The position numbers and the translations under genes are program-made. Below the pieces are notes generated by a model. The model worked only from the letters and a program-made list of their open reading frames with translations, made no database searches and had not been told where the DNA came from. 20,000 bases of DNA, from NCBI GenBank assembly GCA_010015585.1, contig ML975165.1; one strand, 5' to 3'. Source of the stretch: Eremomyces bilateralis CBS 781.70. Its lineage: Eukaryota. Below are positions 7,977-16,843 of this stretch, in pieces; position 1 is the stretch's first letter, and the number at the start of each line of letters is the position of its first letter.

Positions 7977-10285
7977 ATGAATTGCGAATCCTCAAATCCG
8001 TCCCTGCGTCGCACGGAGTCTGCGGAATCGGCCGGTCAGCAATCGGCGAAACGATTGTTGTTTGGCGAGATTGATACTAGTAGTTGTTCTACATTGTCGA
8101 CTGGTCGAAGATGTAAGCGCTTTTGGCTTTTGAGTCCCATCTGAATTTGCGCATTTATACGAAATCACTGCGGTGCCTTTCGAAAAGGGAGGTCTGGCTG
8201 GTTGCTGACTGGCTATCTGTAGCACGAACAAACAGCTCGGTCTGCGCCTTGGTGGACTCCAGAGACCGGTTCTTCAACCGCTTCTGGGCAGAAGAAAACT
8301 GTCGGGATTCCTTTTTGTCGCAGGTCGACAGGAAGACGTTGCCAAATCTCAGACTTGTTTGCCATGACTTTGGAGCGCGGGCAGCTCCAATTCTTTTCGA
8401 AGAGGTCAGTATCACTTTCAAGACCAGTACTTTCGCGCGGCCGACGCGACTCCTGGCCCTTGAAAGGATCGGGCATCATGTGAAGACTTTCAAGTTCAAT
8501 ATGCCTCATCTGCAGGAGACTTTCCTCCCGCCGCTCATTGACGACGTGACGGGAGAAGGGAGAAGCTTTGTCTACACCCCGCAGATACACAAGCCGGAAA
8601 CTCTCATCGGGAAAGTCAAACTGCCAAAGTATGGAAGTTGGGAGATGACGGATATGCTGATCAAACAGTATCCGCCCCTCTTCCATGCCGCTACCAACAT
8701 CCCTTCGTTTATTCGCGCTCTTGAGGCTTTGCCGACATTATCGCATTTAATTGTCAATTGCCCTGGTCAGACGGTTGGACAGCGCAATCGGCGCAGCACT
8801 GTTGACTACGCACTGATATCATTGCGCATTGCGGTTGAACGCGCGTCACTGCCTCTGCTATCGCGGTTGACCTTTGCCCATATCCATCCCGGGGGCCTTC
8901 TTTACATGCACCCGATGCTTGGCCTAGGTTCTCCTCCAGGAACGGCGAAGTGCTGGAGACAAATCAAGCACCTTAGCCTTACGGTGGACGCCATTTCCGT
9001 GGAACCAACACCAGCAAATATGAGAGGTGACGGGCTGGAGCACTTAAGGGTTCTTCACACCTTTTTTAGTGCCTTTTCACCACGCGTGAAGCAGCTCTAC
9101 TTCCAATGGTTAGGTGGAAAGGGCCCATGTCCATTATCGTTGGACCTGGAGCCTGCGTTGCAATCACAGCCGTCCGTTGATGGACCATCGCCGAAGCCGT
9201 CGTTGTCATCCTTACCGCCACCTACTCCCCCCAGGTTGCGAAAACCGCACGCAATATCTTCGACACCGCCGCCGCGTCAACCGCCGCGTCCGCAAACGCC
9301 GCCTGTGGATTTCTGCCCCTCCCCTTCTCTCTCTACAACTTCGACCTTCTCCAAGTCCTCCTCGATCTCTAACTCCTCTCCGAAGCGGTCAAATTCCACC
9401 AGGCGTGAGATGCCTCCTCTACCGCGCCTCGACACTGCGTTCTCCCGTGGCCCGAACCCCTACTTCCCACCTACCCCTCCCTCTTCTTCCTCATCCGTCA
9501 ACTCCTCCGGTTCCCGGGGTTCTTTCTCCCCTACCAGAGTGCCGTCCACAGCGAACACCACACCTTTAAGCCCCTCGCCTTCCCTACCCGCTGTCTACTT
9601 CCCTCGCCTCACCCATCTCAGTCTCCAGTCCCTTAGCACCCCAGCATCTCATCTCGCTGCTCTCATCACACGCCACCAACGGTCTCTCGAAGATTTTGCT
9701 TTCGAAGCGTGTCATCTAACCTCCGGCGACTGGGACGAGGCACTCGAGCCGCTCACCGCCATCACCGGCTCTTCCCGCTGGAAAGGTCGCGAGGTTGAGG
9801 TGTGGGACGTACCGCTCATCATCGACGGAGCCGGCGGCATGGGTGTCAGGAGTAGCATGGTGAGCTCTCGGAGTCGGAGAACGCCTGTGCCACGTGGTGT
9901 GCGGAACCAGGTAGTACTGGATGCAGCAAAGAAGGCGAAGGAATCCAAACGGCCGATGGAAGTGATGTTCAAGGAGGTGGCGCTGGAGACGGAAGCACCG
10001 CGGAGGGATGGCGGAGGTTGGAGACCTGCGCTTCCTCCGATCCCTCCCACGAAGATCTTCGATGGGGAGGGATTCACGGGCATTCCACGTCCTATGAGCC
10101 GGCTCGAGAGACACGCCTTGGGAATGTCGGACGAGGAAGGGAAGAAGAAAGGGAGGCTGGGGAGGTGGTTCGGCAGGAGGAAAAGGGATGCGGTTGGCGG
10201 GAGCAATGTTAACGGGACACTTCCGCCGATAAACGAGGAAGAGCCTGCCAGGAGGAATTGGTTAGGTGTATTGACTTGGAGGTGA
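7977..10285 (+). CDS. Fungal protein of unknown function with F-box-like N-terminal motif and long Pro/Ser-rich insert; proposed exons 7977-8112 and 8223-10285; ~732 aa
   Basis: The open frame 8123-10285 is 2.1 kb and contains an F-box-like segment (DSFLSQVDRKTLPNLRLVCHDFGARAAPILFEEVSI) and LRR-like LxxLxL stretches (LPTLSHLIV, LSRLTF, FPRLTHLSL). The ORF-track start is a TTG. ATG 7977 plus a 110-nt intron 8113-8222 (GTAAGC..GCTGAC..TAG, phase 1) joins in frame. The exact 5' end is uncertain. Confidence 0.75.
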
Positions 10286-10862
10286 TGAGAGATGTTTGCT
10301 TGACAGTATTGCACATATTCACCGGCTTCCTCTTGTACCAAAGAGGTTGCAACGGATTGTTATTACCATGCTTTATGGACGACGAACTTTGCATTCGTTT
10401 ATTTCACGACTCGGACGTCTCACGATCTTTACGATACTTCGTACCATTCAAGATTTATATCAATATTACGAAATATCTATATCTTCAATGTCTCGACCAC
10501 GTATTTATCTTTGTCTGAAGTGTTCTAGGATATTTATGAGCGAAACGGATTGTCACGTTCAACGCCACACACTTCCTAGCAATATAAAGGGATGTGGTTC
10601 AGGATCACGTTGTATGGTATGGCAGCACGGGGCTAGGGAGCTCGTCCATGTTTGCCAACATCCCACTTTCCTCTCACCTATACTTCACTTCCACACAATG
10701 GTCATCAACATACAACCCCGCATGTAACCAGCTTCTGATGGAATGAAGCGATCGTATTGCAGATTGATTACGAACCCCCCAAATGCCCATGAAAACCATT
10801 GCAGCTGTCACACATAGCACCAACGAGAAGCAGGCGCATGCATCGTAAGCTCGCCTCGCATC

Positions 10863-11018
10863 ATGGGGAGACTGGGGAGGTTGGCCCGAGGGTGGCCTAC
10901 TAGGACACTCGTGGCCACCATTGTCTTAGTGTTTGTTCTGCTACATTGGGCGTATATGTTTGAAGAGCGTGTGCGGTTTGAAATCGGAGGGAAACAGGTT
11001 GGAGAATGGGCGAAGTCG
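10863..11018 (+). other. Candidate alternative first coding exon of the GH31 gene (basic N-terminus plus transmembrane segment)
   Basis: It encodes MGRLGRLARGWPTRTLVATIVLVFVLLHWAYMF...WAKS and ends at a consensus GTGAGT donor (11019, phase 0). An in-frame acceptor CAG lies at 11451-11453, downstream of branch site GCTAAC 11426-11431. Confidence 0.45.
10974..10998 (+). promoter_or_regulatory. Tandem AmyR-type Zn2Cys6 binding element CGG-N8-CGG-N8-AGG upstream of the alpha-glucosidase
   Basis: CGGTTTGAAATCGGAGGGAAACAGG matches CGGN8(C/A)GG twice, overlapping, about 400 nt upstream of ATG 11394. CreA-type SYGGRG matches lie at 10872-10877 (+) and 10716-10721 (-). Confidence 0.5.
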
Positions 11019-11393
11019 GTGAGTGACGCTCTATTCAACCCAAGCTAGCATTGCATGTCAGGCCCACTGGGCAGCATCTCCATTATTGAAGGATAAATGT
11101 TTTTCGTAAAGTTGCAGACATAAAGGCACAGTCCCTTATCATGCCTTCTACAATGATATTTTCCGGGTTGATCTTGCCACCTTTTTTCCGACATGGCTGT
11201 TGTCCCTACTTTGAATCTTGTCTGTGCTACAGTACGGCATATGAAGCGCGTCATGGTAAGGAGATTCGGAGATCCAGTTATCGTAAGGAGCATATGCCAC
11301 GCGTTCAACTTTTAAGAGGCCAGTCTTTCGCATTTGGTCGAGTCATTTCCTGTTTCCCGACATGAAGTCGAAACTTTTGGTGTGAAGGAGTCA

Positions 11394-14300
11394 ATGGCAA
11401 CCATAACGAGTCTTTTAGCTGTTCTGCTAACAGTGGTTGTTGCGAATGCACAGGGAACACCTACTTGGAGCACACAGTATGAACCCCTATGTTGAATACC
11501 AGATGCGTGTTCGCAGTCTAACAACAGCAGGTCAACGCAGTTCACCGTTCCAGCTTCTGCCAATGAGGGAATGCTGTTGTTGCCGAATGTCCTTGACCCT
11601 CAGGCTGTGGATGCGCAAACTGTCTGTCCCGGCTACAAAGCCTCCGACGTGAAGGATACGGAACTGGGCTTTACGGCGACGCTGAGATTGGCGGCAGAGC
11701 CGTGTAATCTTTATGGGACCGATATCGAAGTCTTGAGTCTTGCAGTCGAATGTCAGTCCGCTGACAGGATCTCGGTGAACATCCAACCAGCATACATTGT
11801 ACGAATCCACTGTTAGCGCTCCCTGGGAGTGGAAATGCTGATGTATGGCTCAGGTTGATTCAAATGCCTCGCACTACATCCTTCCCGATCATTTGGTGAC
11901 AAGACCAACTGCAGATCCGGACGCAAAGATGTCGTGCAAATCCAATGACCTTGAGCTGACTTGGAGCAATGACCCGTCGTTCTCCTTTACTATCATGCGA
12001 AAATCCACGGGTGACGCCGTCTTTGATACCAGGGGTAAGGTCTTGGTGTACGAGAACCAATTCATTGAGTTCGTCACGTCGCTGCCAGAGAATTACAATT
12101 TATATGGGCTTGGAGAGCGTATCCACGAGTTGCGTCTGGGAAACAACTTCACTGCTACCATGTATTCTGCGGACTCTGGGGATCCTGTGGATTACAATAT
12201 CTACGGCCAACATCCGTTCTACCTGGATACACGGTACTACTCGGATGATGGGCACAACAAGAAACTCCTGCAAACAGCACCTGAGGACGACGCAGTCAAG
12301 TATGACACGTACTCACATGGCGTCTACCTTCGAAATGCCCATGGCCAGGAGGTGCTCCTCCGCGCCTCAAATCTGACATGGAGAACCCTGGGAGGGTCTA
12401 TCAATCTTTACTTTTACTCAGGCCCTTCTCAGCCAGAAGTCACAAAGCAATACCAGCTGAGCACCACGGGACTACCAGCGATGCAACAATATTTCTCGTT
12501 TGGTTACCACCAGTGTCGATGGGGCTATACGAGCTGGACACAGCTTCAAGAAGTTGTGGATAACTTCCGTCGCTTCGATATCCCCCTGGAAACAGTCTGG
12601 CTCGATATTGACTACATGAATCAGTACCGGGATTTTACGAATGACGAGAACGCCTTTCCTCTGGTAGAAGGACAAGAATTCCTGAAGAAACTGCATGATG
12701 GTCACCAGCACTGGGTCCCCATTGTAGATGCGGCGATCTACATTCCAAACCCGGAGAACGAAAATGATGCGTACAATACCTACAGTCGCGGTCATGAGAA
12801 CCAACTCTTCTTGCTGAATCCAGATGGCTCCGAGTACGTCGGATCTGTATGGCCGGGGTATACAGTGTTTCCAGACTGGCTTGCCCCTAATGCAGTGGAC
12901 TGGTGGGTTAAGGAAGTCGCGGACTGGTACAAGGAGTTGCAATTCGATGGGTTGTGGATCGACATGAACGAACCCTCGTCGTTCTGTGTCGGGTCTTGTG
13001 GCTCAGGAAATATGACGCTGAATCCTGTCCATCCTTCGTTTCAATTACCCGGAGAGCCAAGAAATGTCGACTATGATTTTCCAGAAGGCTTCGAGATCAC
13101 GAATGCTACGGAAGCAGCCTCAGCATCCGCGGCATCATCCTCTCAAGCTGCCACAACTTCGTCGACGAGCAACACGACGTCGACTTCTTATCTTCGAACC
13201 ACGCCAATACCAGGAGTACGAGATATCAATTATCCCCCGTACGTGATCAATCATGTAAATGGAGATCTCGCAGTTCATGGAGTTAGCCCAAATGCAACTC
13301 ACAACGATGGTGTGCATGAGTATGACGTACACGGCATATACGGGCATCAAATCCTCAATGCTACGTATCAGGCGCTTCTGAAGGTGCTTCCAGGGAAACG
13401 ACCGTTCATCATCGGTCGCTCCACGTTTGCTGGAAGTGGCAAATGGGCAGGTCATTGGGGCGGCGACAATGTAAGTCATATTTGAATCCTTCCTGAACCC
13501 TGTTAACACCACTGCAGTATTCTAAATTCTACTATATGTATGCCTCCATCCCGCAAGCCCTAACCTTCTCCCTATTCGGCATTCCCATGTTCGGCGTCGA
13601 CACCTGCGGCTTCTCCGGAAACGCCGACCTTGAGCTCTGCTCCCGCTGGATGCAACTCTCCGCCTTCTTCCCGTTCTACCGCAACCACAACATTCTGTCA
13701 GCCGCCCCGCAAGAGCCCTACGTCTGGGCTGCAGTTGCGGAGGCGTCCAGAGTTGCCATGAAAATTCGCTACGCTCTCTTGCCTCACCTGTACACCCTGT
13801 TCCATAAGGCTCACACGACGGGGTCGACAGTGATGCGGGCGTTATCATGGGAGTTCCCAGGGTATCCAGCATTAGCAATCGCAGATCGGCAGTTCCTGCT
13901 AGGCCCCGCGATCTTGATAACGCCTGTGTTGGAAGCTGGGGCGAAGGAGGTGATGGGCGTGTTCCCCGGGACAGGAGACGGGGAGGTCTGGTATGACTGG
14001 TACAACCAGACCGCCATCAGCGTCGCTCCTGGAGCGAATGTCTCAATTGCGGCACCATTGGGACACATTCCGGTGTATGTTAGGGGCGGACACGTCTTGC
14101 CGCTGCAGGAGCCAGGATACACGACGTATGAGTGCCGAAGGAATCCTTGGGCGCTGCTGGTGGCGTTGGGAAGCGATGGCTTCGCGAATGGAGAGCTGTA
14201 TATCGACGATGGGGAGAGTTTGGAGCCGGAGAGCAGCTTGATGGTAACATTTGACGCTCGAGGGTCCAGGCTTCAGGTGCGTTCACACGGGCAATTTGTG

Positions 14301-14492
14301 GATGGGAATCCTCTTGCGAATGTGACGATCATGGGAGTTTCCCAAGCACCACGAGAAGTGAAGCGGAACGGAAAGGCGTTAGACAAATTGTGGGAGTTCG
14401 ACTCTCGTGGCCATATCTTGAAAGTCACTGGGTTACAGGAGCTGACAAAAGGAGGCGCATGGAGTGACGATTGGGAGTTGGTGTGGTCTTGA
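11394..14492 (+). CDS. agdA: Secreted alpha-glucosidase, GH31 (AgdA-like); exons 11394-11476, 11531-11798, 11854-13470, 13518-14492; ~980 aa
   Basis: The signal peptide is MATITSLLAVLLTVVVANA. Family motifs: DAQTVCPGY, YGLGE, GYHQCRWGY, WLDIDYM, DGLWIDMNE (nucleophile), HWGGDN (acid/base), GVDTCGF, ELCSRWMQLSAFFPFYRNHN, YIDDGES. There is a Ser/Thr-rich insert near 13110-13200. Three GT-AG introns of 54, 55 and 47 nt maintain the frame. Confidence 0.95.
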
Positions 14493-15034
14493 TAGTCGAG
14501 CTTACTCTATGTACACTCATTTCAAATTCTATAAGATATTCATAAATATGATCTCCAAGTATCTAAGTATTTTAATACTTCTGTTAGGCTGCGGTAATAT
14601 ATTCGTTCTTGTCAAGAGTGAGAATGTGCAGTGTTCGTTGACAGTTGTGAGGAGCCTCACTGAGGAGAGGTGGGGTGCAAACCAGGCAAACACGTGGACT
14701 TAAGGGGACCCGGATCTTCCGCTGCCTGCCAACTTCCTCTCTACAACATCACCATCCACCCCACACTCGCCCACCATACCCACCCAACATCGACTTACCC
14801 CAGCCTCAATCTCTTCGAAACCGAGTCTCCTCGAATTGGAAGATAGTTTGGCAGAACAAATAGCGGTGCGCAAGCAATTTAGGGTCCGGCATCAAGCAGC
14901 GCAGTAGCTCTGGCATTGAGCATCGTATACCCCCCCGTTCGACTTCACCTCCTCAACACCTCTCACACTACGTCCATCTCTGGACCCATCACTCTCGCAA
15001 AGGAAAGCAACAGGCCTCTGAGTGCTCCGCAAAC

Positions 15035-16843
15035 ATGTCCAACCAGATAGTCGTGAGTTCTGAACGCCGCTCATCGGACGGCCTATCTGTCTTCCGCGTT
15101 TGCAAGATCGAGTGGCCAACTGAGCATCTCCGCTGACACACTTCTTCTCCTGTAGGGTCAAACGTATCAGGAGATCATCTCCAGGGTGATTACAGAGTCC
15201 CAGAGTGCCTTTGAAGAGGCCGGACTGCCTGCTGATGTTCTCAAAGAGCTGCGAGAGGTAAGTCACATCTCAAGTGTACTCTCTGTCCAGCCAAGCTGCA
15301 GTCTATTTCCATCCCCTTCATGTGCAAAAACCGTCATTTCATCTGCCTGTGGCGACATTCTCAATTTCTGGGTATTTCCAAGTCCAAAATCGAATTATTT
15401 GGGGTCGATATCGGGGTGGATGAGTCGTAAGTTGAGCAACGGCAAGACTGAGAGCGAGCGGTGCCAGCCGTGTGAGTCGGACGAGGGGCGGGTGTGCGGG
15501 CAGGGAATTGTTCAGAGGAAACGGACGAGGCAGCAGCTCGCTATTTGGGGCGTCTTTTTATCATTGCCGGAGCCTTCCCAGTCATTCGCGCACGGTTCAC
15601 TCGACGCACCGTTGTGACACCAAGCTGTTTTCCCCTGCACATTCTGCACGAATCCGCTCTTCCAGGCTTCCACAGAATATTATTGCCCACTGATTGGCTG
15701 CATGTTACATCGAATCGGTGCCCTGCTCTGGCAATCAGTTCATGGCTAATCTGTGTTTCATACATTTAGGAATGGCAACAAAGATTATCCGACCTCAAGG
15801 TTGCTCAGTTCCCTTGGGATCCTCCTCCCTCAGCTCAAAACCCTCCTACCCTCCCTTCTAATGCTAGAGCTCATGACCTAAAGACCGAGGAGGGGAAACA
15901 TCCTGGTCAGACCTCAGTGGTCTATGACACGCCTTCACGTCTCAAGCAAGGCTCTACCGTGAAACAAGAACCACTTTTCAAGCAGGACCCCGACTTTAAG
16001 CGAGAAGGAGCCTATGATTCACAACCTCCTGCACCCTCCGGGCCTCAGGCGAATGGCTACAATGCGGCCTTAACTGCCCAACAACGGGCTCAAGCCCAGC
16101 TGCAGAGAGAATATGGTCAGCATGCCAATGCTTCCATCGCTGCGATGAGTCAGGCTCAGGGCCGTCAGAATGGCATGCAGGGTCAACTGCCACAGCAGGG
16201 TCAGCCACAGCAAGGTCAACTGCCACAGCAGGGCCAACCGCCACAACAGCACCCACATCAGCAACAGCCACGCCCAGCCCAATCGCAACCCGCTCCACAG
16301 CAGCAGCATCCCTCCGTTGGCTCTGCGCAGACGGACGGCCCTGGAGATTTGCCTGAGCCTTTAGACAATCGCCGGTTGGAAGCGGATGCATCGATCCGGG
16401 ATCAAATCGAGGCGCTACGTGAACAGATGGACAATGGACTTCTCCTCCCGTATACCAGTAGCCGCCATGCCAAGCTCAAAGCCCGATCGAAGACCAGAAC
16501 GCCAAGGGCAGGACCTTCGCGCGAGGCTGGCCCGTCGCAGTTCGACGGTGGCGATGATGTTCTTAGGGAGGAGGAAGACGAGGATGCGATCAATTCGGAC
16601 TTGGACGACCCTGACGACGATCCTCAACGCCAGGAGGAGCAGGAAGAAGAGATCAAAGAGGTTATCCTTTGCACGTATGACAAGGTTCAACGCGTCAAGA
16701 ACAAGTGGAAGTGCACTCTCAAAGATGGGATTCTGACCACGAATGATAAAGAGTGGGTTTGCTCAAGCGTGCAGCTGACGAACCTATTGCTAATGGATGA
16801 TAGGTATCTCTTCCACAAAGGCACCGGCGAGTTCGAGTGGTAG
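15035..16843 (+). CDS. TOA1: Transcription initiation factor IIA large subunit (alpha/beta); exons 15035-15052, 15156-15257, 15770-16752, 16804-16843; ~380 aa
   Basis: The N-terminal helices read MSNQIV|GQTYQEIISRVITESQSAFEEAG...LKELRE|EWQQRL. The C-terminus reads EDAINSDLDDPDD...ILCTYDKVQRVKNKWKCTLKDGILT...E|YLFHKGTGEFEW. Introns are 15053-15155, 15258-15769 and 16753-16803, all GT-AG with branch sites. Confidence 0.95.
16178..16243 (+). repeat. Imperfect 33-nt tandem duplication encoding the Gln-rich repeat QGQLPQQGQP in the TOA1 linker
   Basis: CAGGGTCAACTGCCACAGCAGGGTCAGCCACAG is followed by CAAGGTCAACTGCCACAGCAGGGCCAACCGCCA. Confidence 0.8.

Follow-up and report, generated by a model that had tools for sequence, protein, structure and literature searches.

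The closest described systems are of two kinds, for both a choice of N-terminal exon or start that changes the targeting of a protein and membrane-bound enzymes of glycoside hydrolase family 31 (GH31) are already known. Perlman et al. reportedly found in 1982 that the yeast SUC2 gene gives a presecretory and a cytoplasmic invertase from distinct mRNAs, and enoA of Aspergillus oryzae and Mr-OPY2 of Metarhizium are said to use alternative starts with leaders laden with upstream open reading frames (uORFs), which leave the protein unchanged and change its output. Among GH31 enzymes, human sucrase-isomaltase and maltase-glucoamylase are type II membrane glycoproteins with a WIDMNE-type signature and their catalytic part outside, as described in PMC10030609. 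Here, we describe a GH31 alpha-glucosidase gene of the fungus Eremomyces bilateralis CBS 781.70, located within a stretch of 20,000 nucleotides of contig ML975165.1 (assembly GCA_010015585.1), which was analyzed as a whole and is referred to below as the window, with positions counted from its first letter. Upstream of this gene lies an alternative 5' exon that is real, transcribed, in frame with the enzyme, and missing from the public annotation. An initial annotation, made from the sequence, had proposed that this distal exon swaps the signal peptide of the enzyme for a type II membrane anchor, and that two promoters make a secreted and a membrane-tethered form from one gene.

RNA evidence was obtained from one public sequencing run, X1, of which the kind was guessed ("RNA?") and which was available as contigs; these were compared with window positions 8000–15500. 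Ten contigs fit this region, all of them at least 99% alike to it, and hold six joints, all GT..AG and spread over three genes. Because its contigs hold spliced GT..AG joints, X1 carries RNA-derived sequence. The junction that had been predicted, 11018^11454, is present in one contig at a word depth of 81.1: 435 nt are skipped between GT and AG (the joint is listed as 11017->11453, which with the cut one letter further on equals 11018^11454), and the shorter side of the contig spans 26 letters. Transcription upstream of ~11100, on which the proposal had been made to depend, is seen in a second contig (record 2, 10723–11019, depth 71.9) that stops at the donor, and a further, 3445-nt contig (record 4, depth 234.4) begins 24 letters before the next junction, that is, at the acceptor. 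The unspliced path is represented by a contig of depth 11 (record 3, 10990–11478), which continues without a break from the distal exon past the donor. Thus, the distal first exon is found in RNA-derived contigs, spliced in frame to an acceptor inside the signal-peptide DNA and skipping the proximal start, as had been proposed and as befits an alternative first exon. The depth bins of X1 are reproduced exactly by these contigs alone (for example, 40.3 for 11263–11513 and 10.9 for 10510–10760), and therefore no hidden contig lies there; among the X1 contigs, no joint from donor 11018 other than that to 11454 was found. Of the four introns of the gene, the 435-nt one is the only one with an unspliced contig; the three small ones are only joined across, and according to the bin arithmetic no contig that retains one of them can be present. 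The depths are means that give no isoform ratio, and contigs cannot show transcription starts. No X1 contig covers 10444–10722, between the end of the upstream transcript and the distal exon, an absence that was given no weight.

The features of the locus, all on the + strand, are as follows.
10583..10588, +: TATAAA, a weak candidate from the motif scan for a core promoter element of the distal transcript, 135 nt upstream of the start of the distal-exon contig
10723..10862, +: 5' leader of the distal transcript, with 5 upstream ATGs; its 5' limit here is that of the RNA contig (10723–11019)
10863..11018, +: coding part of the distal first exon, 52 codons for an Arg-rich head, a hydrophobic segment and a short stem; start context atcATGg
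11019..11453, +: intron of the distal form, 435 nt, from a GT..AG joint in an RNA contig; holds the annotated ATG and the signal-peptide codons
11394..11453, +: annotated start and 20 signal-peptide codons (proximal model, P0001), removed by the distal splice and represented solely in the unspliced contig (depth 11)
11454..11476, +: common 23-nt exon segment encoding the first residues of the mature enzyme, from joints 11018^11454 and 11476^11531
11477..11530, +: intron, 54 nt, from an RNA contig joint
11531..11798, +: exon for the N-terminal region of the enzyme (exon 3), used as the query for orthologues; RNA contigs and exon 3 search
11799..11853, +: intron, 55 nt, from an RNA contig joint
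11854..13470, +: exon for the GH31 N-terminal domain and most of the TIM barrel, including GLWIDMNE (PF13802, PF01055, motif)
13471..13517, +: intron, 47 nt, from an RNA contig joint
13518..14492, +: last coding exon, covering the remainder of the TIM barrel, the C-terminal domain and the stop codon (PF01055, PF21365)

The distal open reading frame (ORF) is as the initial annotation had described it: ATG 10863–10865 opens 52 codons that run to 11018 (unspliced, the frame stops at 11046) and encode the Arg-rich head, hydrophobic stretch and short stem. The splice signals that it had listed, the donor GTGAGT (11019–11024), the branch site GCTAAC (11426–11431) and the acceptor CAG (11451–11453), are all in place, the sole nearer AG (11432–11433) lying just 2 nt past the branch A, and both donor and acceptor are indeed in phase 0. 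When 10863–11018 is joined to 11454 onward, a coding sequence (CDS) of 3039 nt results, encoding 1012 aa with no stop other than the terminal one. The intron, which had been called long for the genome, is long for this locus, at 435 nt versus 47, 54, 55, 103 and 110 nt for the other introns seen in the RNA contigs. Five upstream ATGs are present in the 140-nt leader (10738, 10743, 10783, 10789 and 10838), one of them overlapping ATG 10863. The latter combines A at -3 with G at +4. At -3, the five upstream ATGs all carry a base other than A, and in four of them this base is not a purine. Start context matters in fungi, according to PMC7049704. The codon-usage score of the distal exon is best in frame 0, where it exceeds those of all 480 non-coding windows of the locus.

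The gene itself corresponds to the annotated 980-aa "family 31 glycosyl hydrolase" XP_033532352.1 of E. bilateralis CBS 781.70, a species reportedly mentioned in a survey of 101 Dothideomycetes genomes (PMC7082219). A search with exon 3 (89 aa) yielded 192 proteins with E <= 0.001, many of them named alpha-glucosidase or GH31; the top match, 100% identical, is XP_033532352.1 itself, and the next relatives are only ~71% identical in this exon. The sequence of that protein (P0001) is the proximal model, with ATG 11394, a CDS of 2943 nt and 980 aa. Pfam comparison of the GH31 exons identified PF01055 (E 5.4e-75 and 3.5e-32, in two exons), PF13802 (E 2.6e-6) and PF21365 (E 4.3e-21), that is, the TIM-barrel catalytic domain together with the N-terminal and C-terminal beta domains of GH31. 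A motif search of P0001 located GLWIDMNE at residue 483 and HWGGDN at residue 651; the GH31 signature with the nucleophile Asp is given in PMC10030609 as [GFY]-[LIVMF]-W-x-D-M-[NSA]-E. From the names in the source records and from homology, the protein is predicted to be an active alpha-glucosidase. With 12 N-glycosylation sequons and 10 Cys, the enzyme part fits the expectation for a lumenal or extracellular domain. In the proximal model, the first 20 codons from ATG 11394, which has T at -3, encode a hydrophobic signal peptide ending in A-N-A-Q, and codon 21 starts at 11454; the common exon segment ends at 11476 (GT at 11477), so that its last Gln codon is split by the intron.

The peptide encoded by the distal exon is conserved. 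A phmmer search with its 52 residues against 1.84 billion representative proteins produced one match, P0121 (E 1.4e-7), a 91-aa frame from a 1554-nt Logan contig. When P0121 was compared with the window by tblastn, the only match was at 10908–11024 (27 of 39 residues identical, 69%; E 1.8e-15), and it ends on Val-Ser, the two codons that the donor spells; residues 41–91 of P0121 had no tblastn match in the 435-nt intron in any frame. The likeness to P0121 falls sharply at the donor, the pattern of a coding exon beside an unconstrained intron; it is therefore the protein sequence of the exon that is under constraint, and not the intron. The identity of the exon to P0121 (69%) is about that of exon 3 to its nearest named relative (71%). 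The expectation of the initial annotation that the ORF would be conserved in relatives thus holds for one other organism, in which the exon peptide is kept up to the donor and no further. A separate small gene, formed by the 61-aa frame that reads through the donor, was considered and rejected, given that the likeness to P0121 stops at the donor and that the only joint of this donor goes to 11454. Pfam assigned no family to the 52-aa exon, and the ESM Atlas search gave no usable match. A metagenome scan with an alignment of the two exon sequences gave matches in 344 stretches, of which one, L001 (2099 nt), was confirmed; it was discarded as a false positive, being G+C-rich with long overlapping frames on both strands, of bacterial type, and matching at 38% over residues 19–57, around a chance GGRQVGEW.

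The distal-exon peptide was found in none of the 28 other full-length orthologues. A crude core finder placed a signal core within the first 13 residues in 26 of the 28, the other two having weak or truncated N-termini. Two orthologues, one from a metagenome-assembled genome of a lichen fungus (P0101, 1083 aa) and one from Aureobasidium (P0115, 1046 aa), are modelled with long N-terminal extensions with extra hydrophobic segments before an ordinary signal peptide; these extensions are unrelated in sequence to the distal exon and may be over-extended models or other upstream coding exons.

Residues 1–14 of the distal peptide include four Arg but nothing acidic, and are followed by 19 uncharged residues, TLVATIVLVFVLLHWAYMF (15–33), and then by EER. 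The charges flanking the hydrophobic segment are +4/0 before it and +3/-4 in the next 15 residues, so that there is more positive charge before the segment than after it, as in type II anchors; by the positive-inside rule, the positively charged head of a type II signal anchor lies on the cytoplasmic side. The best 19-residue Kyte-Doolittle mean is 2.15, versus 2.06 for the annotated signal peptide. Length gives a divided answer, with 19 uncharged residues in the window but a strong core of 12, and 14 uncharged residues in P0121; some 18–20 residues or more are needed to span a membrane, and the h regions of signal anchors are longer than those of signal peptides, according to PMC2120157. A mitochondrial presequence, another candidate for an Arg-rich head, was set aside in view of the 12 sequons and 10 Cys of the enzyme part and the secretory character of all orthologues.

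From these observations, we propose that transcription begins at or before 10723, ~670 nt upstream of the annotated ATG. As the contigs show, the first exon, 10723–11018, is joined to the acceptor at 11453/11454, whereby the annotated ATG and all 20 signal-peptide codons are removed. Translation would then start at ATG 10863, whose start context is the best in the leader, and would yield a 1012-aa product composed of the Arg-rich head, the 19-residue uncharged hydrophobic segment and a stem of ~20 residues, after which the mature enzyme would begin. The hydrophobic segment would direct this product to the endoplasmic reticulum (ER), most likely as an uncleaved N-in/C-out (type II) signal anchor because four positive charges precede it and a net negative flank follows, and the glycosylated catalytic domain would face the lumen or the cell exterior, tethered to the membrane. 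On balance, we consider this complete account, from the splicing of the distal exon to a 1012-aa and most likely anchored GH31 enzyme, to be somewhat more probable than not. A shorter transcript that starts in the intron might also make the secreted form, the chances of which we take to be about even; such a second start is suggested because the signal-peptide ORF is intact within the intron. The membrane tether and the second promoter are parts of the account that we infer. Of the interpretation offered by the initial annotation, the distal exon, the splice and the reading frame stand, whereas the second promoter fared less well against the unspliced contig that extends from the distal exon, as did the anchor against the 14 uncharged residues of P0121.

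Several observations weigh against the proposed account. The splice is known from a single run of guessed kind, in the form of contigs, and the 26 letters on the shorter side of the junction contig fall below the 31-letter rule for counting a bridge. The models of the other 28 full-length orthologues all have a short signal at the N-terminus; P0121 is known from its own frame alone and not from the context of a GH31 gene; and word-based searches found no protein with the distal N-terminus, either with the 61-aa frame (lengths 33–107) or with the 52-aa exon (lengths 92–2000; 22 candidates scored, 0 passed). The codon-usage score of the distal exon lies below those of all 487 in-frame windows of the large exon, and the five leader ATGs would dampen translation from 10863. 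The strongly hydrophobic core comprises only 12 residues (LVATIVLVFVLL); P0121 has a Lys at the position of T19 of the window, which leaves it 14 uncharged residues, the length of a signal peptide, and has A-Y-S before its acidic stem. Finally, the mean depth of the downstream contig (234) exceeds that of the two upstream paths (81+11), which could reflect coverage bias or more transcripts starting near the annotated ATG.

It is very improbable that the junction arose during assembly of the contigs, for example from a chimeric word path, with no such RNA behind it. Although the joint is held by one contig with a short side and from one run, its ends are canonical GT..AG, its donor and acceptor are exactly those predicted beforehand from the sequence alone, separate contigs end at the one and begin at the other, and the word depth of 81 comes from a set in which all 10 contigs closely match the window. 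A weightier alternative, if still a rather unlikely one, accepts the same mRNA and protein and takes the distal N-terminus for a second cleavable signal peptide, so that the enzyme would be secreted either way and the two forms would differ only by ~20 extra N-terminal residues and in promoter or translational control. The shortness of the strong core, the 14-residue uncharged stretch of P0121 with its small-x-small-like A-Y-S, and the similar Kyte-Doolittle maximum of the annotated signal peptide all fit this alternative, but the window has its 19 uncharged residues after a 14-residue head with four Arg, and, by the -3/-1 rule, A-Y-S of P0121 would suit signal peptidase whereas H-W-A-Y-M-F after the core in the window, judged by eye, appears to offer no good cleavage site. 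An uncleaved type II anchor is predicted with a probability of a little over one half. As an anchor or as a signal, the distal segment should bring the enzyme into the secretory pathway and place its catalytic part in the lumen or outside.

As to the number of promoters, the unspliced contig (10990–11478, depth 11) continues the distal exon, so it is in part distal transcript that was left unspliced. The annotated ATG 11394 is preceded by nine ATGs downstream of the donor, so that the signal-peptide form would hardly be translated from the long RNA and would need a start inside the intron. It is quite conceivable, although short of an even chance, that the distal form is the only real mRNA, the unspliced contig being pre-mRNA and the annotated signal peptide an ancestral relic within the intron. 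The run of that contig across the donor, the nine preceding ATGs and the T at -3 of the annotated ATG agree with such a relic, as does, weakly because the codons are so few, the G+C content at third codon positions (GC3) of the 20 signal-peptide codons (0.35 versus 0.55 in the large exon). However, the signal-peptide ORF inside the 435-nt intron is intact, in frame, well formed and strongly hydrophobic, ends in A-N-A-Q, and stands where all 28 other orthologues have their signal; at the distance of P0121, where the exon is 69% identical and the intron is beyond recognition, a signal peptide that had gone unused for so long should have decayed. Moreover, of the four introns only this one has an unspliced contig, and the downstream depth exceeds the sum of the two upstream paths. 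We regard as improbable the further alternative that the distal transcript is mainly regulatory, 5'-extended and poorly translated, so that its transcription and uORFs hold down the proximal promoter and the 52-codon frame is minor. Five upstream ATGs in the 140-nt leader, one overlapping ATG 10863, would be in keeping with such a role, and the exon holds two CGGN8(A/C)GG motifs, at 10974 and 10985 (CGGTTTGAAATCGG and CGGAGGGAAACAGG; window 10974–10998, overlapping-spaced, ~400 nt upstream of the annotated ATG), which conform to what we take to be the binding consensus of the starch regulator AmyR and might be an activator site of the proximal promoter, with ~1 such motif expected by chance. 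Against a mainly regulatory transcript, splicing takes out the proximal ATG and supplies an in-frame ORF with an ATG of its own, rather than leaving the main ORF untranslated; this ATG, at 10863, is the only one in the leader with a strong start context; and the exon shows protein-level conservation that breaks off sharply at the donor. This is not the pattern of an undecoded 5'-extended isoform. In the 1.1 kb scanned for promoter motifs, the two CGGN8(A/C)GG matches were accompanied by one TATAAA per strand and one CCAAT, and because the matches are too few, promoters were not assigned from motifs.

The two neighbouring transcripts are also represented in X1. Upstream, on the + strand, lies a transcribed gene with an ORF at 8501–10285, encoding a Pro/Ser-rich protein of 594 aa to which Pfam assigned no family; a 110-nt GT..AG intron (8113–8222) precedes its ATG, and its contig ends near 10443, followed by sequencing-adapter letters. 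Downstream, at 15028–15500, just after the alpha-glucosidase mRNA, there is a transcript with a word depth of ~1500–1900 and a 103-nt GT..AG intron (15053–15155). The 3.4-kb alpha-glucosidase contig reaches 15053, so that the alpha-glucosidase and downstream transcripts abut.

As to what the distal exon means for this gene, the public 980-aa model misses a transcribed and conserved coding exon, and words that span its junction are common in X1 (depth 81). It is possible, although we lean against it, that one gene makes, by choice of promoter, both a secreted alpha-glucosidase and one tethered at the surface or in the endomembranes, in an arrangement common to at least one other organism. Under this two-form reading, and just as tentatively, the DNA that encodes the signal peptide of one form would double as branch site and acceptor for the intron of the other. 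If the reading were true, the tethered form could keep glucose release, or inducing transglycosylation products, near the transporters and sensors of the cell itself. If the predicted anchor is true, an enzyme family regarded as secreted in ascomycetes would include a membrane-bound form, similar in build to the brush-border GH31 enzymes of animals but arising by another route, through exon exchange. Where gene models are picked for their likeness to orthologues, the ancestral signal peptide will be preferred, and exon swaps at the N-terminus that alter the location of an enzyme will be missed, which matters for the prediction of fungal secretomes.

Compared with the described systems, the catalytic protein is orthologous to AgdA and AgdB of Aspergillus and to other ascomycete GH31 enzymes, with which it shares PF13802, PF01055 and PF21365; those secreted enzymes, however, have a short N-terminal signal, and none has the distal-exon peptide. 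Among the top-ranked open-access literature, no fungal precedent was found in which an alternative first exon trades a signal peptide for an anchor, nor any membrane-bound enzyme of the AgdA type. With sucrase-isomaltase and maltase-glucoamylase, the locus has in common the WIDMNE-type signature (its own protein has GLWIDMNE and HWGGDN), and the distal form, with a positive head followed by a hydrophobic segment, would resemble them in topology, although word-based search and phmmer detected no sequence likeness of the distal N-terminus to their anchors. The animal brush-border enzymes differ in having two catalytic units and a constitutive anchor, whereas the fungal gene encodes one unit and has its predicted anchor-like segment on a separate upstream exon, which takes the place of an ordinary signal peptide. 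The resemblance to SUC2 lies in a single gene whose transcripts have different 5' ends that decide on the secretion signal; the SUC2 alternative is reportedly signal-less, cytosolic and unspliced, whereas the alternative in the window brings its own hydrophobic targeting segment by way of a 435-nt intron, the 3' end of which is formed by the signal-peptide DNA. As in enoA and Mr-OPY2, a distal start adds a leader with upstream ATGs and a proximal start is possible, but those genes are said to keep their protein, whereas the locus described here exchanges its coding N-terminus.

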